Shown here: piece after piece, positions 1,889 to 37,912 of the stretch
Numbering within the stretch: the first letter of the stretch is position 1
Layout of the letters: each line of letters begins with the position of its first letter
From: Escherichia coli
GTDB taxonomy: Bacteria > Pseudomonadota > Gammaproteobacteria > Enterobacterales > Enterobacteriaceae
Length of the DNA stretch: 64,000 nt
Assembly (NCBI RefSeq): GCF_003334405.1
Contig: NZ_QOWM01000012.1
Strand: one strand, 5' to 3'
Position numbers and translations under genes: made by a program
The notes under the pieces: generated by a model
Seen by the model: the letters and a program-made list of their open reading frames with translations, nothing else
Told to the model about the DNA's origin: nothing
Databases searched by the model: none

Positions 1889-1904
1889 GGCAAAAGGCGT
1901 GCCA
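1889..1904 (-). promoter_or_regulatory. sigma54 (-24/-12) promoter upstream of lafB
   Basis: Minus strand reads TGGCACG-cctt-TTGCC (plus-strand ttggcaaaaggcgtgccaa), matching the TGGCACG-N4-TTGCW consensus, about 30 bp upstream of the lafB ATG. Confidence 0.6.
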
Positions 1905-2040
1905 ATAATTTTTATGTGAATAATCAATAGATTGAAAAATGGGCGGAAAGGCCATTTCCGGTCTGGTGGAAATACGCCTGCCGCAGAAAGAACAACACCG
2001 CCCGCAGGCGGTGTTGAGACTGATGACAAACGCAACACTG

Positions 2041-3107: not shown

Positions 3108-3133
3108 AAAACGACACCTCGGGAGCAAACTTA
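3108..3133 (-). promoter_or_regulatory. Candidate sigma28-like (class III) promoter for lafA
   Basis: Minus strand TAAGTTT-N11-GTCGTTTT versus the FliA consensus TAAAGTTT-N11-GCCGATAA: good -35, partial -10 (4/8). Confidence 0.3.
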
Positions 3134-3496
3134 AAACCGCCGTTAAAAAAATTTCACTGCGGTTTATCTGATGCCACTTTTAGCTAAAAAAAGCAGAGTT
3201 TAAATTCAGATAAAAAGATTATTAGCAATATCTGCCACATGGCCAGGTATCAAAATATGTCTTTATCAAACGCTTGATATAGTTAAGATTACCATCAATT
3301 AACGCGTTTTCTTCTCAATGTACTGATGCCAAAATTTACATTGCGTTGCAAATAGTACACATTTGGCTATTGTACCTGTCCTGTCATTTCGTTACATTTC
3401 CACGCCATATAGTGATTAAGAATAATCCTATTACCATAAAATATTAATTATCACGCAGAAAAATCATCTTCTCAGGGACGTATAAGACTGTGCTTT

Positions 3497-4390
3497 ATGC
3501 AAAGCACTATCAGGAAACATTTATCCCTTGCTAAGGTAAACTCAACTATGAGTATTATTATCAACAACTGGCGGATGGACCCGTCGCTTAATGCCTTAAT
3601 ACATTGCGAAACGGGTGAAACACGTCGTCTCGGCGAATACCATTTTATTTTGCTGGAAACATTAGCAAAAAATGCCGATGTGGTTTTATCGCGATCTTAT
3701 TTATGTGCCGAAGTATGGAAGAACCGCATTGTCGGCGGTAACAGCCTGCCGACGGCGATACATGCATTACGCGTTGCTATCGACGATGATGGCAAACAAC
3801 AGAACATTATTAAAACCATCCCGAAAAAAGGTTACCTGTGCAATAAAGAGTATGTGTCTTTGCCGGAGTCATCGCCTGCGGAAGCGCTGATTATTACCAA
3901 CCAGGTACAGGAAACTGTGCCAGGAGAGATATCTTCGACAACCCTGCCTGTGCCTGTTAGAAAAAAACATAAAGGACTGATGGGGTTAGCGTTGACCGCG
4001 GCTGTTATATTTATTGGCTCGACCGTGGGGTATTCACACTTGAAAAGTACACCTGACGCCCCGCAACTGGTAAAAGAGTCAATTAACAGCCCAAGAATAA
4101 AAATATTTCACCTTAGTTCTGGAAAAGAAAATAATTCCGCACCGTTACTGTCACAAACCCTCGCACCAGGAAAAGACAAACTCGATAATTTATTGTCAGC
4201 GCATAATATGACAATGACAACCTATTATAAATATGTTCGTAACCGACTGGAGAGTGATATTGTTCTGCGCAACCAGTGCAACGGTAGCTGGCAATTAACC
4301 TTTAATGTGGATGAGTGGCAGAATAGCGATATTAATAGCGCGATGTATCAGAATTTAGAGAAGTTGTTAAATACTGTGCAGAAGTGCTGA
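3497..4390 (+). CDS. lafZ: ToxR/CadC-like membrane-anchored transcriptional regulator (OmpR-type winged helix, one TM segment, periplasmic domain)
   Basis: N-terminal region resembles an OmpR/PhoB-type DNA-binding domain (..TIPKKGY); hydrophobic segment GLMGLALTAAVIFIGSTVGY; divergent from lafA; the true start may be the internal Met at 3548. Confidence 0.55.
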   Translation: MQSTIRKHLSLAKVNSTMSIIINNWRMDPSLNALIHCETGETRRLGEYHFILLETLAKNADVVLSRSYLCAEVWKNRIVGGNSLPTAIHALRVAIDDDGKQQNIIKTIPKKGYLCNKEYVSLPESSPAEALIITNQVQETVPGEISSTTLPVPVRKKHKGLMGLALTAAVIFIGSTVGYSHLKSTPDAPQLVKESINSPRIKIFHLSSGKENNSAPLLSQTLAPGKDKLDNLLSAHNMTMTTYYKYVRNRLESDIVLRNQCNGSWQLTFNVDEWQNSDINSAMYQNLEKLLNTVQKC

Positions 4391-7834: not shown

Positions 7835-8060
<226 letters not shown>

Positions 8061-10349: not shown

Positions 10350-11135
10350 TTACAGCGTCTGGCTGATGTACTGCAACATATCGTCCGCCGCCGACACCAT
10401 TTTGGCGTTCATCTCGTACGCGCGTTGCACCGTAATCATCGCCACCATTTCGTTGACGATATCCACGTTCGAGCCTTCCAGTGCGTTGTCCTGCAAAGTG
10501 CCAAGCCCATCTTCGCCCGGCACACCTTCTGTCGGCTGACCGCTGGCGGCGGTTTCCAGATACAGGTTGTCGCCCTCGGCGGAAAGCCCCGCCGGGTTGG
10601 CGAAGTTAACCAGCGTCAGTTGCCCTAACTCGGTCGCGTCGCTGTCGCCGGGTAAGATCGCCGTCACTGTGCCATCCTCACCAAACGCGACGTTGGTGGC
10701 CCCTGCCGGAACGTCGATTTCCGGCTGCAACGGCAAGCCCTGCGAGTTGGTCAGCACGCCGTCGGCGTTCACCTGCAAGTTGCCATCGCGGATATAGGCG
10801 ATATCGCCGTTAGCCTTTTGCACCTGCAAAAATCCCTGCCCCATAATGGCGACATTCATCGCGTTGTCGGTGGTTTCGACGTTGCCTTCGGTGAAGGTTT
10901 TCTGGGTACCGACAATGCGCACGCCGCTACCGAATTGCAGCCCGGTCGGCATGATGTTGTTCTGGTCGAGCATCGCGCCCGGCGCTTCCTGGGTCTGGTA
11001 GAACAGATCCTGAAACATCACCCGGTCGCGCTTGAAGCCGGTGGTATTAACGTTGGCGATGTTGTTGGCAATCGCGCTCATTTCAGCATCCTGCGCCGAG
11101 AGGCCGGTTTTGCTGATCCATAATGCTGCGTTCAT
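10350..11135 (-). CDS. lfgG: Flagellar distal rod protein (FlgG-like)
   Basis: 261-aa ORF with FlgG-like N terminus (..WISKTGLSAQDAEMSAIANNIANVNTTGFK) and C terminus. Confidence 0.9.
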   Translation of the reverse strand: MNAALWISKTGLSAQDAEMSAIANNIANVNTTGFKRDRVMFQDLFYQTQEAPGAMLDQNNIMPTGLQFGSGVRIVGTQKTFTEGNVETTDNAMNVAIMGQGFLQVQKANGDIAYIRDGNLQVNADGVLTNSQGLPLQPEIDVPAGATNVAFGEDGTVTAILPGDSDATELGQLTLVNFANPAGLSAEGDNLYLETAASGQPTEGVPGEDGLGTLQDNALEGSNVDIVNEMVAMITVQRAYEMNAKMVSAADDMLQYISQTL

Positions 11136-14779: not shown

Positions 14780-14816
14780 TTCCTGCGTCACTCCTGCTTC
14801 AATCCGCATACGCTAA

Positions 14817-14832
14817 GCAATCGCCGTGCCAT
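14817..14832 (-). promoter_or_regulatory. sigma54 (-24/-12) promoter of the lfgB rod/hook operon
   Basis: Minus strand reads TGGCACG-gcga-TTGCT (plus-strand agcaatcgccgtgcca), an exact match to TGGCACG-N4-TTGCW, about 35 bp upstream of the lfgB ATG and followed by an AGGAGT RBS. Confidence 0.7.
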
Positions 14833-14860
14833 TTTTTAAGTGACTGATGAGAAAGGGTTT

Positions 14861-15598
14861 ATGAGTTTTCAATTTTGCAGGCGGAAGTTTTATTTCCTCC
14901 TGGCGCTGGCCTTACCGGGCTACGCCGCCGTCCACCCCGTGCAGCACAGCGCGCGGGAACAAGTCAACGCCCAGGTGCTGAATGCCGCGAGCCAAAAAAT
15001 TGAATCGCTGGCGCAACAGCGGCAGTGGCATGACTATCACTACACCTTTAAGGTCTACATTCCCTCGCAGATTGCGACCGCCGCGCCCTGTGCGACTACA
15101 CCCGGCGTTACGCTCACTTCGCCTGCGGAAATCGCCCTCAACCGGATGAACTTCACCGTCAGTTGCCCGCAAAGCTGGCAGATGAACGTGGCGGTGCGCC
15201 CGGATGTGCTGGTGCCGGTGGTGATGACAAAGTCACTGGTTGCCCGCGATACGCCGCTCACGGCAAATGATGTGGAGTTGAAGCCCTACAACGTCAGCGC
15301 CCAGCGCAGGGAGGTGTTGATGGAACTCGATGACGCGATTGGTTTCAGCAGTAAACACGCGCTGCAACCAGGCAGGCCAATCACCAAAGAAGAGCTGGTG
15401 TCTCCGGTGCTGGTCGGGCGCGATCAGCCGGTGATGATTGTTTACCAGAGCGCGGGGATCACCGCCTCGATGCCCGGCGTGGCGCTGAAAAATGGTCGCA
15501 AAGGCGAGATGGTGAAAGTGCGTAACGCCAGCAGCCAGCGGGTCATCAGCGCGATGGTGGCGGAAAGCGGCGTGGTGACAACGGTAAGCGCGGAGTAA
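14861..15598 (+). CDS. lfgA: Flagellar P-ring assembly chaperone (FlgA-like)
   Basis: Signal-peptide-bearing ORF divergent from lfgB; ATG 14861 has a better RBS than the GTG at 14840; the C-terminal region resembles FlgA. Confidence 0.7.
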   Translation: MSFQFCRRKFYFLLALALPGYAAVHPVQHSAREQVNAQVLNAASQKIESLAQQRQWHDYHYTFKVYIPSQIATAAPCATTPGVTLTSPAEIALNRMNFTVSCPQSWQMNVAVRPDVLVPVVMTKSLVARDTPLTANDVELKPYNVSAQRREVLMELDDAIGFSSKHALQPGRPITKEELVSPVLVGRDQPVMIVYQSAGITASMPGVALKNGRKGEMVKVRNASSQRVISAMVAESGVVTTVSAE

Positions 15599-16398: not shown

Positions 16399-16525
16399 CG
16401 ACAATACCTTCCCCCATCGCGGAAACGGATTTTCCGCCTGATTGCCAATCCCTTGTTTTTGACTACAAAAAATCCCGGCACGCTTATTGCACATCCTGCA
16501 CAGCATTAAAGACTGGAAGCCACCT

Positions 16526-20084: not shown

Positions 20085-20172
<88 letters not shown>

Positions 20173-21030: not shown

Positions 21031-22368
21031 TTACTGTTCTGCCTTTTTGGCACAAGGAAAGAGGATTTGCAGGCGGCTTTGCACCAGTTCGAGGGAGGCG
21101 GGTTCGCGCATCTCCTGGCGCAAAAATCGCTCAATGGCCGGAAACATTTTCACCGCTTTGTCGACGCTGGCGTCGGCACCTGCCACATAGCCGCCGAGCG
21201 GGATCAGAGGTTTGATCTCCATATAGGCGGCATAGTTTTGCTTTAACGCGCGGGCGGATTGCTGATGTTCCAGGCTGGTGACCTGGTTCATGCAGCGGCT
21301 GATCGACTGGCCGATATCAATGGCCGGATAGTGCCCCGCTTCCGCCAGTTTGCGGGTTAATACGATATGCCCGTCCAGCACCGCGCGCGCGCAGTCGACA
21401 ATCGGATCTTGCTGGTCGTCACCTTCCGCCAGCACGGTGTAGATGGCGGTCATCGATCCCGCGCTTTCGCTGTTGCCTGCGCTTTCGACCAGTTTGGGGA
21501 TCATGCCGAATGCCGATGGCGGATAACCTTTGGTGGCGGGCGGTTCGCCGAGCGAGAGGGCGATTTCCCGCTGCGCCATCGCGTAGCGGGTCAGGGAATC
21601 CACCAGCAGTAAGACGTGATGCCCGCGGTCGCGAAACCAGGCGGCGATGGAGTGGCACAGTTCGGTGGCTTTCAGACGCATCAGCGGCGATTCATCGGCA
21701 GGCGCGACGACGACGATAGACTTTGCCAGCCCGTCCGCGCCCAGCGAGTGGTCGATAAACTCTTTCACTTCGCGCCCGCGTTCCCCAATCAGCCCAACCA
21801 CCACGATATCGGCTTTGGTCTGGCGGGTGATCATCCCCAGCAGCACGCTTTTCCCGACGCCGCTGCCTGCCATTAGTCCGACGCGCTGGCCTTTGCCGAT
21901 GGTCAGCAGGCCGTTGATCGCTTTCACGCCCACGTCCAGCGGTTCGTCTACCGAACGACGAGTTAAGGGATTAACCGAGGGCGGCAACGGCGGCAGAAGG
22001 TCGTTGCCGTTCAGGCGGCCTTTGCCATCCAGCGGTTCGCCGAGGCCATTCACCACGCGGCCTAACCAGCTTTCGCCTATCAGGATGTCGTGGGCTTTTT
22101 CTTCCGGGAAGACGCGTGCGCCTGCCATCAGGCCGACCGGCTGTTTAAACGGCATTAAATAGGTGATGTCGCGATTAAAGCCCACGGCCTGCGCGTCGAT
22201 CAGCGTGTGATTGGCACTTTCGATGCGGCACAGCTGCCCGGTCATTAGCGGGCAGCCGACACTCTCCAGCAGGATGCCGTTAAGGCGCACCAGCCGCCCG
22301 GCGACGCGGGCCAGCGGGATCGACTCCAGCGAGCGCAGGGCGTTATCGAACGCAGAAAAATCACTCAC
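21031..22368 (-). CDS. lfiI: Flagellum-specific ATPase (FliI-like)
   Basis: 445-aa ORF with Walker A GSGVGKS and F1/FliI-type ATPase sequence. Confidence 0.9.
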   Translation of the reverse strand: MSDFSAFDNALRSLESIPLARVAGRLVRLNGILLESVGCPLMTGQLCRIESANHTLIDAQAVGFNRDITYLMPFKQPVGLMAGARVFPEEKAHDILIGESWLGRVVNGLGEPLDGKGRLNGNDLLPPLPPSVNPLTRRSVDEPLDVGVKAINGLLTIGKGQRVGLMAGSGVGKSVLLGMITRQTKADIVVVGLIGERGREVKEFIDHSLGADGLAKSIVVVAPADESPLMRLKATELCHSIAAWFRDRGHHVLLLVDSLTRYAMAQREIALSLGEPPATKGYPPSAFGMIPKLVESAGNSESAGSMTAIYTVLAEGDDQQDPIVDCARAVLDGHIVLTRKLAEAGHYPAIDIGQSISRCMNQVTSLEHQQSARALKQNYAAYMEIKPLIPLGGYVAGADASVDKAVKMFPAIERFLRQEMREPASLELVQSRLQILFPCAKKAEQ

Positions 22369-23071
22369 CCTGCGACTCCGGCGTGAGTGTTTCTTTCAGC
22401 GCGGTCATGCATTGTTCAAGGCGATGCTCGCAGCCGATATCCAGTTCGGATTTGTCGGTGATCACCCGGCATTCGCCCGGTGGCAGATCCGGCGAAGGCG
22501 TCAGCCCCCATTCGCTGACCTTTTCCGGCACCGCGTCGCGCAGGCGGTTAAACTCTTCCGTACTCAGCATCACTTGCAGGGTTTCCGGCATCGCCGGGAA
22601 GGCCGCCAGCGCCTCTTCCACCAGCGCCAGCAACTGCGTCGGTTGCAGCGCCAGTTCGCAGCGGATCACCTGCCGCGTCACCTTTTCCACCAGTTGCAGC
22701 AAATCTTCCCGCTGTTTACGTTCGATATGGGCGAGAAAGTCGTTCACTTTACCGGTGATGGCTTCCAGCGGCTGCGCCGCCTCAACAAACTGTTTGCGCC
22801 CTTCCTGCTGCCCGGCGAGACTGCCTTCGGTGTAGCCCTGGCGTCGCCCCTCGGCAAAACCTTGCTGATGACCTTCGCTAAAGCCCTGCTCCTGACCTTC
22901 GGTCATTCCCTGAGCAAAACCTTTTTGCAGCCCTTCCTGAAAACCGTCCATCAACTGGCGCTGGTAATCGGCGGCGCTAATGCTGGCGGTGAGCGGTTCT
23001 CCGGTCACCGCACGCTGGCGCGGCGGGAAGCGGTGCAGGCGATAGCGCCCGCGCAGTGTTTCAATGGTCAT
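22361..23071 (-). CDS. lfiH: Flagellar assembly protein FliH-like
   Basis: 236-aa ORF between the FliG-like and FliI-like genes; overlaps lfiI by 8 bp. Confidence 0.75.
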   Translation of the reverse strand: MTIETLRGRYRLHRFPPRQRAVTGEPLTASISAADYQRQLMDGFQEGLQKGFAQGMTEGQEQGFSEGHQQGFAEGRRQGYTEGSLAGQQEGRKQFVEAAQPLEAITGKVNDFLAHIERKQREDLLQLVEKVTRQVIRCELALQPTQLLALVEEALAAFPAMPETLQVMLSTEEFNRLRDAVPEKVSEWGLTPSPDLPPGECRVITDKSELDIGCEHRLEQCMTALKETLTPESQGE

Positions 23072-26069: not shown

Positions 26070-27056
26070 TCAGGAGAAAACTTCGATACCTTGCTTGCGC
26101 ATGGAGGCCAGTCGATAGCGCAGTGCGCGCGGGGTAATGCCTAACAGGTCGGCGATTTTGCTGCGGTTGCCCTGATATTTACGCATCAGGTCAGCGATAT
26201 ATTGATACTGGGCGCTTCGTCCGTGCTGGCCCAAATCGCTGGTTTCGGCAATGTGGACGGCGGGCTGAACAGGCCATTGCAGTTCGCTGCGGTCGGCAAC
26301 GTCCGTTTCCGGCAGGCCTAAGGCATCCGGGTAAATCACGCCGTCGCGATTTAAAATCATTCCCCGCTGAATGGCGTTCTCCAGCTGGCGCACGTTGCCG
26401 GGCCAGCGGTAATTGAGCAGCGCCCGGCGGGTAGATTCTGAAAGGGTGATATTTTTCACCAGCACCGTGGAGTACTTTTTTATAAATGACTCTGCCAGCG
26501 GAATAATATCGTTCAGACGTTCACGCAGTGGCGGCATGGTAATAGGAATAACCGCCAGACGATAATAGAGATCTTCACGAAAACGCCCGGCAGCCACTTC
26601 CTGTTCAAGGTTTTTATTGGTGCAGGCAATCAGGCGAAAATTGAGTTTAATTTGTCGGTTGCTGCCTAATCGCTCAACCTGTTGCTCCTGCAATACGCGT
26701 AATATTTTGGCCTGTAGCGCCAGCGGCATATCGCCAATTTCATCGAGTAATAAGGTGCCGTTATTCGCTAGTTCCATTTTTCCTGGCACACTGGCAATTG
26801 CGCCGGTAAATGCGCCTTTGTCGTAGCCAAATAATGTAGCTTCCAGCATGTTTTCCGGGATCGCTGCACAGTTCACGCCGATATAGGGCGCGTTATCATT
26901 TTCACCAAAGGCTACGGTGTGAATATATTTCGCCACGCATTCTTTGCCCGCGCCGGTTTCGCCCTGAATGAGCACCGGCACGTTAAATGCGGCGACACGC
27001 TTTGCCAGAGTAAAAGCGTTAATGCTGGAAGCGGCAGTTGCAATAAGTTCAGACAT
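26070..27056 (-). CDS. lafK: sigma54-dependent transcriptional activator without a receiver domain (AAA+ domain plus C-terminal HTH)
   Basis: Walker A GETGAGKE, GAFTGA motif (YDKGAFTGA), Walker B LLLDEIGDM, C-terminal HTH; the protein begins directly at the AAA+ domain (328 aa). Confidence 0.85.
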   Translation of the reverse strand: MSELIATAASSINAFTLAKRVAAFNVPVLIQGETGAGKECVAKYIHTVAFGENDNAPYIGVNCAAIPENMLEATLFGYDKGAFTGAIASVPGKMELANNGTLLLDEIGDMPLALQAKILRVLQEQQVERLGSNRQIKLNFRLIACTNKNLEQEVAAGRFREDLYYRLAVIPITMPPLRERLNDIIPLAESFIKKYSTVLVKNITLSESTRRALLNYRWPGNVRQLENAIQRGMILNRDGVIYPDALGLPETDVADRSELQWPVQPAVHIAETSDLGQHGRSAQYQYIADLMRKYQGNRSKIADLLGITPRALRYRLASMRKQGIEVFS

Positions 27057-27177
27057 AGGGTGAACGATATCAGTAGCGACAGAAAACAGGATATTGTGAA
27101 GCGTATCACCGGCGGGATTAACAAGTTCGAATTAAACGATAATAAAAATATTATTTTATGGTAAACAATGAGTTATC

Positions 27178-27275
<98 letters not shown>

Positions 27276-33691: not shown

Positions 33692-33900
33692 AACTGCCGG
33701 ATGCGGCGTGAACGCCTTATCCGTCCTACCGTTCAGGCACAAGTTTGTAGGCATGATAAGACGCGCCAGCGTCGCATCAGGCATCTGCGCATAACTGCCG
33801 GATGCGGCATAAACGCCTTATCCGGCCTACCGATCCGGCACAAGTTTGTAGGCATGATAAGACGCGCTAGCGTCGCATCAGGCATCTGCGCACAATTATG
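33692..33900. repeat. REP/BIME cluster adjacent to rayT
   Basis: Four REP units: gccggatgcggcgtgaacgccttatccgtcctac, gtaggcatgataagacgcgccagcgtcgcatcaggc, and a second similar pair. Confidence 0.85.
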
Positions 33901-34393
33901 AAATGATACGCTCCCCGGCACTAAAATCCGTTACGTCCCCCGCCCAATCGATGGGATATAACCCTCGCGCGACATCGCGATGGAACGTTGAGAATGGCCA
34001 ATCACTCACTTGCTTTACCCAACCATGCTTTACTGGATTTATATAAATATAATCAACATGATGCCTATAATCTTTGGTATTGCGGATGGCGTGCTCCCAA
34101 AAACGTGGTTGCCAGATATTTTTCAATCCACAAGCATGGGTAAATTGCTTTTTAATTTCCCGCCAGCGCGAGGAAAAATCATCATCGCCTTCAGGTAATG
34201 TCCAGATACAGTGCATATGCTCTGGCAAAACGACCCAGGCGTTGATTTCAAAAGGCCTGTCTCGCTTAACTTTAATAATGGCGTGACGGAGCATCTGGTA
34301 CTGGGTGGTCAAAAGTTGGCTTCGACGATTTCGTAAATTCACCGTGAAAAACCATGTTCCCCCCTTGATGTAATAACGACGATATTCAGACAT
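33896..34393 (-). CDS. rayT: REP-associated tyrosine transposase (IS200/IS605-like TnpA_REP)
   Basis: 165-aa ORF with an HuH motif (..LPEHMHCIW..) and catalytic-Tyr region, flanked by REP clusters. Confidence 0.8.
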   Translation of the reverse strand: MSEYRRYYIKGGTWFFTVNLRNRRSQLLTTQYQMLRHAIIKVKRDRPFEINAWVVLPEHMHCIWTLPEGDDDFSSRWREIKKQFTHACGLKNIWQPRFWEHAIRNTKDYRHHVDYIYINPVKHGWVKQVSDWPFSTFHRDVARGLYPIDWAGDVTDFSAGERIIS

Positions 34394-34479: not shown

Positions 34480-34572
34480 CGCGGGCTCGTAGGCATGATA
34501 AGACGCGCCAGCGTCGCATCAGGCACCTGCGTACAACTGCCGGATGCGGCGTAAACGCCTTATCCGTCCTAC
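34480..34572. repeat. REP element pair
   Basis: gtaggcatgataagacgcgccagcgtcgcatcaggc ... gccggatgcggcgtaaacgccttatccgtcctac. Confidence 0.8.
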
Positions 34573-37769: not shown

Positions 37770-37912
37770 GGATGCGGCGTGAACGCATTATTCGGCCTAC
37801 GGTTCGCGTACAGATTTGTAGGCATGATAAGACGCGTCAGCGTCGCATCAGGCATCAGCGCACAAATGCCGGATGCGGCGTAAACGTCTTATCCGGCCTA
37901 CGCCAGACTTAC
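37770..37912. repeat. REP/BIME cluster between yafJ and gmhA
   Basis: Three REP units (gtcggatgcggcgtgaacgc.., gtaggcatgataagacgcgtcagcgtcgcatcaggc, gccggatgcggcgtaaacgtcttatccggcctac). Confidence 0.8.

Follow-up and report, generated by a model that had tools for sequence, protein, structure and literature searches.

In Vibrio parahaemolyticus, LafK activates the class 2 lateral flagellar genes, fliA_L among them, and the fliM_L operon is LafK-independent (PMC4481668, PMC3930126). The Flag-2 system of E. coli has the published gene order lfhAB-lfiRQPNM / lafK-lfiEFGHIJ and was found in about 15% of the screened Enterobacterales, its function and regulation being still largely uncharacterised; in some E. 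coli strains it is reported as non-functional or of unknown function, strain 042 being one of the non-functional cases (PMC6993521). Francke et al. (2011) listed LafK, together with PspF and HrpR/S, among the activators without a signal-recognition domain ("type Ic"), and also described R. sphaeroides FleT as lacking the sensor and DNA-binding domains and H. pylori FlgR as lacking the DNA-binding domain (PMC3162934). That E. coli LafK has no sensor domain is real, as shown below, and is already recorded in that work.

The DNA analysed here (a stretch of 64 kb, hereafter the window) corresponds to the Flag-2 locus for lateral flagella of E. coli. The gene labelled by PGAP as "sigma-54 interaction domain-containing protein" occupies the published lafK position, directly 5' of the fliE_L-fliJ_L genes and divergent from fliM_L, and the same gene order is found in Pantoea, Paramixta, Hafnia, Atlantibacter and Pragia, and also at a Vibrio locus (L006). 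The name LafK given to it in a preliminary description of this DNA was thus appropriate, and its product is the sigma54-dependent activator for the lateral (Flag-2) flagella in E. coli. The coordinates of its domains and of the other features discussed are collected in Table 1.

The preliminary description had the reading frame opening directly at the AAA+ domain and ending in an HTH, with no room for a receiver (REC) or another sensory domain. Pfam agrees with this on every point: the Sigma54_activat match covers model positions 3-167 of 168, and N-terminal to it there are five residues and nothing more. Neither Response_reg nor any other N-terminal domain was detected in the 328 aa by the Pfam search and, since residue 6 already corresponds to position 3 of the AAA+ model, a fold model could not alter the receiver-less verdict. 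In an alignment with NtrC and FlrC-like N-termini the LafK start falls after the linker, and neither this alignment nor Pfam revealed a phosphorylatable receiver of the NtrC/FlrC type. With its PF00158 match and the full motif set (GETGAGKE, found approximately where it had been placed, GAFTGA, LLLDEIG, FREDLYYRL and WPGNVRQLEN, the sensor II motif, which sits in the lid domain) LafK belongs to the bacterial enhancer-binding proteins by its AAA+ domain. Walker A, GAFTGA, Walker B, FRxDLxYRL and WPGNVR are invariant in an alignment of 15 diverse Enterobacterales LafK sequences, in which the genera are 59-84% identical, and LGITPRALRYRLA in the HTH is nearly so.

Table 1. Coordinates of lafK, its upstream region, lafZ and the predicted promoter elements in the window.
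Feature	Position	Strand	Details
lafK CDS	26070..27056	-	ATG start, 328 aa + stop; ORF list, Pfam, PGAP
AAA+ sigma54-interaction domain	26541..27041	-	residues 6-172; Pfam PF00158 Sigma54_activat, E 8.6e-64
Walker A GETGAGKE	26940-26963	-	residues 32-39, within AAA+ domain
GAFTGA loop	26799-26816	-	residues 81-86, within AAA+ domain
Walker B DE		-	residues 105-106, AAA+ domain
AAA+ lid AAA_lid_14	26319..26525	-	residues 178-246; Pfam PF25601, E 1.1e-19
C-terminal Fis-type HTH (HTH_8)	26106..26207	-	residues 284-317; Pfam PF02954, E 2.3e-8
In-frame TAA stop	27132..27134	-	25 sense codons 5' of lafK ATG; translation
AT-rich block 5' of lafK	27104..27157	-	kept in E. coli and Citrobacter; alignment
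BIME	27185..27259	.	REP palindromes 27185-27214 and 27229-27259; inverted repeats
lafZ	3497..4390	+	297 aa, OmpR/ToxR/CadC-type winged-helix domain; Trans_reg_C residues 42-114, E 4e-13
sigma54 promoter-like TGGCACGGCGATTGCT	14816..14831	-	12/12 specified bases; 37 nt 5' of lfgB start codon
Candidate LafK site GGAAATAAAACTTCCGCC	14880..14897	-	48 nt 5' of lfgB sigma54 site
sigma54 promoter-like TGGCACGCCTTTTGCC	1889..1904	-	11/12; 5' of lafB (fliD homologue, 541-1857)
Candidate LafK site GGAAATGGCCTTTCCGCC	1942..1959	-	perfect palindrome CGGAAA-N5-TTTCCG; 37 nt 5' of lafB sigma54 site
sigma54 promoter-like CGGCACGCTTATTGCA	16476..16491	+	11/12; 5' of FliB-like flagellin methylase and glycosyltransferase genes (variable region 1)
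Candidate LafK site GGAAACGGATTTTCCGCC	16421..16438	+	perfect palindrome; 37 nt 5' of 16476 sigma54 site

An upstream in-frame start adding a receiver, or a REC fold in the first 30 residues, had been named as the findings that would overturn this picture; neither was found. None of the sense codons between the TAA and the lafK ATG is ATG, GTG or TTG, and the stop shuts the frame, which makes an N-terminal extension of LafK impossible. The idea that the region upstream is REP sequence holds only farther out, where there is a two-unit BIME; the first ca. 128 nt (27057-27184) are AT-rich and non-REP. The BIME lies in the divergent lafK-lfiM intergenic region (386 nt) and its REPs are true ones: with a 1.8-kb query, every one of the 5426 E. 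coli genomes gave matches, the median being 25 places. In the alignment, E. coli has the BIME at this site and Citrobacter does not. The AT-rich block that both keep is a candidate lafK promoter or operator; a consensus scan places a sigma70-like -10 hexamer (AATAAT) at 27150-27155 and a -35-like TGGATA extending to 27179. No conserved block was found in the lafK upstream regions of seven genera beyond this E. coli/Citrobacter pair, and no sigma54 promoter for lafK or lfiM (no match of 8/12 or better in E. coli, 9/12 at most in six other genera); in all genera compared, the region is unusually long and AT-rich. A tblastn search of the window and the intergenic region for remnants of a receiver or of MotY, with MotY_L and the N-terminal part of Vibrio LafK as queries, gave nothing significant, and no frame of the 386 nt, nor the rest of the window, has receiver-like coding potential.

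In its layout LafK is like PspF and the HrpR/HrpS pair of Pseudomonas syringae, which have the same AAA+ domain and C-terminal HTH, no N-terminal regulatory domain and a similar length; as in the type Ic proteins, the regulatory domain is missing and the HTH is kept. The PspF/HrpS-like organization proposed beforehand is borne out by an end-to-end alignment, with LafK residues 3-315 colinear with positions 7-319 of the 329 in the PspF profile. LafK was nevertheless rejected as a PspF orthologue, its scores being far below the curated cutoffs (models TIGR02974 and PRK11608 of NCBIfam; 236.4 bits vs. 443.55 and 204.6 vs. 529) and, judged by its sequence, it is an analogue of PspF and not an orthologue. 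In sequence it resembles FlrC, NifA and NtrC1 more than PspF, its targets are flagellar and, unlike for PspF and HrpS, no PspA- or HrpV-like partner gene was seen in the cluster. The closest solved structures are the AAA+ domains of FlrC and FleQ, that of FlrC (4qhs) being the closest (E 3.7e-75). FlrC/FleR and FleQ/FlrA are likewise flagellar regulators and likewise adjoin fliE-fliF. However, FlrC and FleR each work with a cognate kinase and a canonical receiver that can be phosphorylated, E. coli LafK having neither, whereas the N-terminal domain of FleQ and FlrA is of the FleQ type and both proteins are responsive to FleN and c-di-GMP; E. coli LafK lacks such a domain too. FleT and FlgR are flagellar sigma54 activators minus an accessory domain as well, but LafK differs in keeping its HTH. 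Several short activators adjacent to fliF (L021, L029 from Zhongshania, L033 and L044) are also domain-reduced and share 44-48% identity with LafK.

The short form is general across the Enterobacterales. Receiver-less LafK proteins of 324-348 aa are found in Citrobacter, Leminorella, Atlantibacter, Hafnia, Pantoea, Budvicia and Pragia, and altogether this architecture occurs in at least 10 genera; enteric LafK is a receiver-less subgroup of the LafK family. Compared with C. werkmanii, lafK has a dN/dS of 0.049 (dN 0.11 and dS 2.29, the latter saturated) and this value, with the conserved short form, indicates a gene under strong purifying selection and not a decayed one. Some apparently longer proteins were discarded. 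Reading the sequences of P0053, P0068, P0110 and P0080 (462-521 aa), which look like REC+LafK, showed them to be chimeric metagenome assemblies in which the N-terminal half of NtrC or TyrR is joined to the C-terminal half of LafK at FREDLYYRL/PPLRER, and P0009 and P0011 are frameshift-caused fusions to FliE or FliG.

Outside the enteric bacteria, the best loci with a recognisable FliE were those of V. mexicanus (L005) and V. bivalvicida (L006), with 50% identity to LafK and 57-58% between their FliE and LfiE. In the same Vibrio, the locus of the polar FlrC (L011) has 46% identity to LafK; the nearest non-enteric relatives are lateral LafK and not polar FlrC/FlrA. As in E. coli, the lafK of Vibrio-type lateral systems lies directly 5' of fliE_L-fliJ_L, with the fliM_L operon running divergently. 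Identity between the two proteins is 49-50% over the AAA+, lid and HTH regions and, according to the literature, the Vibrio protein likewise serves as the sigma54 activator of class 2 lateral genes. The difference lies in front of the AAA+ domain, where the Vibrio protein has a receiver-like domain of ca. 120 aa whereas E. coli LafK begins at the end of the linker, and motY_L precedes lafK in Vibrio where E. coli has the AT-rich spacer and the BIME. In V. bivalvicida (446 aa, in the context fliMNPQ / motY_L-lafK-fliEFGH) the N-terminus gives a weak Response_reg match (E 1.5e-4) and the acidic pocket or the acceptor Asp is replaced in the alignment; in the other closest flagellar relatives the protein is extended N-terminally by 122-127 aa. 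The nearest non-enteric LafK, from the lateral clusters of Vibrio and Shewanella, carry a degenerate receiver (about 120 aa) that is probably non-phosphorylatable, and no such domain could be found in E. coli LafK by Pfam, in the frame or by the remnant search. As the non-enteric proteins have this degenerate receiver, the short enteric LafK is most simply seen as a derived loss.

The three best sigma54 promoter matches in the window all precede Flag-2 operons and none is in the lafK-lfiM intergenic region. Upstream of each of them there is a palindrome that was first spotted by eye and afterwards tested by pattern search; an automatic search for k-mers shared 5' of the three promoters found none. 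The pattern GGAAA-N6-TTCCGCC has three exact copies in the 64 kb, and six with at most one mismatch against 0.43 expected by chance, each exact copy being 37-48 nt 5' of one of the three promoter matches. The copies of lafB and at 16421 are in non-coding DNA and that of lfgB occupies some of the first codons of lfgA, the divergent gene. In front of lfgB, TGGCAY-N5-TTGC is invariant in 7 genera and so is GGAA-N7-TTCC, located 51-53 nt from the promoter; palindrome, promoter and an IHF-like site between them are kept in the 7 genera with fixed spacing. We propose CGGAAA-N5-TTTCCG as a candidate upstream activating sequence to which LafK would bind, which would make the three promoters LafK-dependent. 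Since the lfgB palindrome overlaps the first lfgA codons ([RG]-K-x-x-F), its conservation could be partly at the level of the protein. The sigma28 consensus had 36 matches (16 expected), none of them with two or fewer mismatches 5' of a flagellar gene start.

Taken together, LafK is the dedicated sigma54 activator of Flag-2, a natural protein made of AAA+ and HTH without a regulatory domain, and we consider it likely that it works along the following lines. Enteric LafK would have arisen by loss of the pseudo-receiver together with motY_L, the gene preceding lafK in Vibrio. Having no inhibitory or activating domain, it should be active whenever made, assembling and hydrolysing ATP as PspF and HrpR/S do; the PspF/HrpS-like reading in the preliminary description is reasonable, its constitutive activity being a prediction. 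A LafK dimer or oligomer would bind CGGAAA-N5-TTTCCG, centred about 72-83 nt 5' of the start sites, and with IHF-assisted looping could open the sigma54 promoters of lfgB-L, lafB-U and the flagellin-modification genes. The lafB-U operon includes the sigma28 gene lafS in the published gene order.

The decision to make lateral flagella would then be taken mainly through lafK expression, from its long upstream region. Control at the level of lafK transcription, one of the two options put forward earlier, is consistent with the sequence: in seven genera that region is long and AT-rich and has no sigma54 promoter. Candidate regulators at this point are LafZ and silencing of the H-NS type. LafZ, which has a weak CadC match, has been described as a transmembrane regulator (PMC6993521) and, speculatively, it might be the cluster-specific upstream input to lafK transcription. 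A more detailed scenario is possible, but we hold it with considerable reserve: a "delta-receiver" LafK, whose pseudo-receiver was dropped along with motY_L in the ancestor of the Enterobacterales cluster, would have had its input moved to lafK transcription, perhaps to LafZ, and would act from an undescribed operator, CGGAAA-N5-TTTCCG, which precedes the three sigma54 promoters by ca. 50 nt, an IHF site lying in the interval. Parts of this scenario may already be published.

The most serious competing explanation accepts the missing receiver and denies the constitutive activity, the LafK ATPase being restrained post-translationally, be it by a partner that works like the anti-activators PspA on PspF, HrpV on HrpS or FleN on FleQ, or by a small ligand such as c-di-GMP bound to the AAA+ domain, the case of FleQ/FlrA. 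Some AAA+ activators are indeed controlled via the ATPase domain, FleQ by c-di-GMP and FleN and PspF by PspA, so the absence of a sensor domain is no proof against control of this kind. The nearest analogues by architecture in the grouping cited at the outset, PspF and HrpS, each have a regulator acting in trans, and the closeness of the FlrC and FleQ AAA+ structures points the same way. In V. parahaemolyticus, moreover, the repression of surface-regulon genes by LafV, a degenerate EAL protein, depends on LafK (PMC9303241). However, the Flag-2 genes that were annotated or scanned include no recognisable PspA-, HrpV-, FleN/FlhG-like, EAL or PilZ gene. Besides, LFRS, the c-di-GMP-contact motif of FleQ, would precede residue 1 of LafK, and the R-N pair that follows Walker A is K-Y in LafK. 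The lafK upstream region, with the same character in all genera, argues for transcriptional control instead, and we regard a restrained ATPase as unlikely, if worth keeping in mind. The lafW gene and other uncharacterised Flag-2 genes are possible LafK partners.

It could also be thought that the short gene is an N-terminally truncated, decaying remnant of the Vibrio-type lafK and no longer an activator, as Vibrio LafK is ca. 120 aa longer, about three quarters of the complete E. coli genomes have lost the Flag-2 region by deletion (it is carried by 1277 of 5426) and it bears inactivating mutations in some strains (strain 1303 has a frameshift in fliH, and 042 was mentioned above). The Flag-2 circuit may be silent in many E. 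coli strains. Nevertheless, the dN/dS of lafK contradicts decay, the ATPase and sigma54-contact motifs are invariant across the genera, the short architecture recurs throughout the family members listed above with sigma54 promoters and palindromes kept in 7 genera, and lfiH is intact in this window, all of which leaves a remnant very improbable. Even less credit can be given to a mis-assigned start, i.e., to a longer protein with an upstream receiver hidden by a frameshift or an assembly error. A BLAST alignment with Vibrio LafK does reach 11 codons 5' of the ATG (to 27089), but this stretch (ILFSVATDIVHPM vs. LLSRVEAVGKPM) is a weak, non-significant match (E 0.055 in a 471-nt database). The closed frame refutes this option, hundreds of E. 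coli genomes are annotated with the same product of 328 aa, and the few REC+LafK proteins are the chimeras described above; we give it practically no weight.

The receiver-less activator is of modest importance in itself, but it narrows the search for the Flag-2 on-switch to the lafK promoter region and possibly LafZ, and the predicted operator and three sigma54 promoters offer concrete reporter designs for Flag-2 activation. The comparison with Vibrio is a small, clean case of an activator family shedding a receiver that was already without phospho-acceptor chemistry. To the published record of a sensor-less LafK, the present analysis adds the degenerate receiver of its non-enteric relatives as context.

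The sequence around lafK matches many E. coli chromosomes at 99.9% identity and is carried by 1277 of the 5426 complete genomes. In the annotation of strain 1303 a complete second flagellar set surrounds lafK (flgN-M-A, flgB-L, fliE-J, fliM-R, flhB and flhA) and adjoins rayT, yafL and dinJ-yafQ; the locus is Flag-2, originally described in E. coli 042. Our ORF is lafK because of its place in the published order, lfhAB-lfiRQPNM-lafK-lfiEFGHIJ (PMC6993521). The fliH homologue lfiH (22361-23071, minus strand) is an intact 236-aa ORF here and the annotation of its counterpart in strain 1303 (L001 16673-17372) gives a frameshift and an internal stop, so the integrity of Flag-2 differs among strains.

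The preliminary description had placed lafK at 26070-27056 (minus strand), and the ORF list gives the same position, with an ATG start and 328 aa. Its account of the product (AAA+ from the outset, GETGAGKE, GAFTGA and a C-terminal HTH) is borne out by Pfam and by the motif positions, and the Pfam search of LafK returned no domain besides AAA+, lid and HTH, that is, no N-terminal REC. We also looked for an upstream in-frame start. The frame continues for 25 sense codons, with no ATG, GTG or TTG among them, to a TAA at 27132-27134, and since this stop closes the frame before any start codon the product cannot be longer. The upstream region had been described as a REP element, which is right farther out, where a two-unit BIME is found, and wrong for the adjoining 27057-27184, which is AT-rich and non-REP. 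That the BIME units are genuine REPs follows from a 1.8-kb query that includes them, which matches all of the 5426 complete E. coli genomes and does so at a median of 25 places. The BIME, an insertion specific to E. coli, lies directly upstream of the AT-rich block 27104-27157.

Features of LafK and of the Flag-2 locus (nucleotide positions in the window unless residues are stated)
Feature	Position	Strand	Details
Sigma54-interaction AAA+ domain	LafK residues 6-172		Pfam, E 8.6e-64, model positions 3-167 of 168
AAA+ lid	LafK residues 178-246		Pfam
Fis-type HTH	LafK residues 284-317		Pfam
Walker A GETGAGKE	LafK residues 32-39
GAFTGA	LafK residues 81-86
BIME, two REP units	27185-27214 and 27229-27259
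lafZ	3497-4390	+	297 aa; OmpR/ToxR/CadC-type winged helix, Trans_reg_C residues 42-114
Sigma54 promoter-like site	14816-14831		before lfgB; consensus scan
Sigma54 promoter-like site	1889-1904		before lafB (FliD homologue); consensus scan
Sigma54 promoter-like site	16476-16491		before FliB-like flagellin methylase and glycosyltransferase; consensus scan
Palindrome CGGAAA-N5-TTTCCG(CC)	1942-1959, 14880-14897, 16421-16438		37-48 nt upstream of the three sigma54 sites

The gene lafK and its role were reportedly given already in the 2005 description of Flag-2. That LafK is receiver-less is right and was known before; a survey of sigma54 activators published in 2011 groups it with PspF and HrpR/S as having no signal-recognition domain (PMC3162934). 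What we add is evidence that the short enteric LafK is a selected form, derived by losing a degenerate receiver that Vibrio retains, together with a predicted LafK regulon and operator conserved across seven genera, and a lafK that itself has no sigma54 promoter. Parts of this may already be published. These points are useful leads for switching Flag-2 on and will be no surprise to the specialist.

Like PspF and HrpR/S, E. coli LafK consists of AAA+ and HTH without a regulatory domain, and by this architecture it probably works as they do. Its alignment with the PspF model is end to end, yet scores far under the orthologue cutoffs, and its sequence is nearer to FlrC (4qhs, E 3.7e-75), NifA, NtrC1 and FleQ than to PspF; by position and closest relatives it belongs to the LafK family. 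Constitutive activity had been predicted for it. LafK may be truly constitutive, or its AAA+ domain may be held back by a partner protein or a ligand; no genes of the PspA, HrpV, FleN, EAL or PilZ types were seen among the annotated or scanned genes of the Flag-2 cluster.

The short form is widespread in the Enterobacterales. A search of 5.8 billion proteins found receiver-less LafK of 324-348 aa also in Citrobacter, Leminorella, Pseudescherichia, Atlantibacter, Scandinavium, Siccibacter, Budvicia, Pantoea, Hafnia, Pragia and Regiella. In an alignment of 15 sequences (59-84% identity to E. coli) the ATPase and sigma54-contact motifs are all invariant and the N-terminal leaders have just 0-20 residues. 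lfiM is divergent from lafK-lfiE...J in five contexts (Pantoea, Paramixta, Hafnia, Atlantibacter and Pragia). That lafK might be a truncated remnant is ruled out by the dN/dS of 0.049 (dS 2.29, dN 0.11) between E. coli and Citrobacter werkmanii, and the gene is therefore kept by selection. A few longer database entries with an apparent receiver (proteins P0053, P0068, P0110 and P0080, "REC+LafK" or "ACT/PAS+LafK") were discarded as chimeric metagenome assemblies, in which the N-terminal half of E. coli NtrC or TyrR is joined to the C-terminal half of LafK at conserved AAA+ motifs. Surveys of domain architecture could be led astray by entries of this kind.

For the origin of this form, the upstream frame extension was measured in 80 relatives, one genome per species. 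The closest non-enteric ones beside recognisable lateral fliE/fliF (V. mexicanus, V. bivalvicida and a gammaproteobacterial MAG; 49-50% identity) have a frame 122-127 residues longer upstream than the LafK match. In V. bivalvicida lafK is a 446-aa ORF, preceded by motY_L and followed by fliEFGH, with fliQPNM divergent, and its product gives a weak full-length Response_reg match (residues 9-115, E 1.5e-4, Pfam). Alignment with NtrC reveals that the acidic pocket and/or the acceptor Asp have been lost from the receivers of lateral LafK and are kept in polar FlrC-type proteins, and that E. coli LafK starts at the exact end of the linker. Vibrio LafK has a pseudo-receiver whereas E. coli LafK does not, and no remnant of a receiver or of MotY_L was detectable in the window. 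On the simplest reading, the LafK that came down to the Enterobacterales cluster had a receiver already reduced to a pseudo-receiver, which was later lost wholly. Of the best 150 cluster representatives (from 1.84 billion proteins), most have a domain at the N-terminus and some 13 are short, at 312-368 aa; short activators also adjoin fliF at loci L021, L029, L033 and L044, and receiver-less forms are therefore a recurrent minority among LafK relatives. Apart from LafK, sigma54 activators of 329-364 aa without a receiver are found in unrelated lineages (L021, L029 from Zhongshania, L033, L044 and L072 from Sphingomonas).

Scanning the window with the sigma54 promoter consensus (12 specified bases) gave three best matches (12, 11 and 11 of 12), all directly upstream of Flag-2 operons. 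There was no match in the lafK-lfiM intergenic region, which fits a fliM_L operon reported to be LafK-independent in V. parahaemolyticus (PMC3930126). The motif GGAAA-N6-TTCCGCC, the search pattern for the palindrome, has three exact copies in 64 kb, all at these promoters, and with up to one mismatch there are 6 matches versus 0.43 expected by chance. A fourth copy, CGGAACGTCGATTTCCG (10705-10723), with one mismatch, lies within the lfgG coding sequence with no sigma54 site close by and is possibly a chance match. In the lfgB upstream regions of E. coli and six more genera (L082, L088-L092), neither GGAA-N7-TTCC nor TGGCAY-N5-TTGC varies, and in each of the seven the two stand 51-53 nt from one another, with an IHF-like TCAA-N4-TTA between palindrome and promoter in six (ca. 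14835-14850 in the window). The first codons of lfgA, which is divergent, overlap the lfgB palindrome, whose offset from the lfgA start differs (nt 23 or 41) and whose offset from the promoter is constant. Both remaining E. coli copies lie in non-coding DNA. The predicted binding site, IHF site and sigma54 promoter form a classical layout, and the palindrome is a good candidate for the operator of LafK, to which we infer its assignment. By the published gene order the lafB operon runs on beyond the window to lafS (sigma28); the predicted circuit therefore agrees with the V. parahaemolyticus model, in which LafK switches on class 2 genes including fliA_L (PMC4481668). Pantoea sp. has a perfect extended palindrome, GGCGGAAACTTAAATTCCGCC (L082 19979-19999), between lfgA and lfgM with no strong sigma54 site adjoining, and the E. 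coli lfgA-lfgM gap has no equivalent.

In each of the seven genera examined a long, AT-rich region (386-641 nt; GC 0.27-0.38 outside E. coli) precedes lafK itself, and no convincing sigma54 site was found in any of them. The block 27104-27157 is conserved between E. coli and Citrobacter and holds a sigma70-like -10 hexamer. LafZ, described as a transmembrane regulator (PMC6993521), is a putative membrane regulator specific to the cluster and an obvious candidate for the sensory input that LafK is without.

Upstream of the flagellin gene lafA, ca. 45 nt from the start, TTAAGTTT-N11-GTCGTTTT (3108-3134, minus strand) resembles a sigma28 (FliA-type) promoter, as expected of a class 3 gene, and is a poor match to the enteric consensus. 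Further REP/BIME elements (7958-7974, 20141-20157, 34550-34566, 37879-37895 and ca. 1990-2120) are intergenic, inside or beside the Flag-2 locus, one of these gaps being that which separates lafA from the candidate operator of lafB. By mapping onto strain 1303, rayT, the gene of a REP-associated transposase, directly adjoins the locus (ca. 33896-34393, minus strand).
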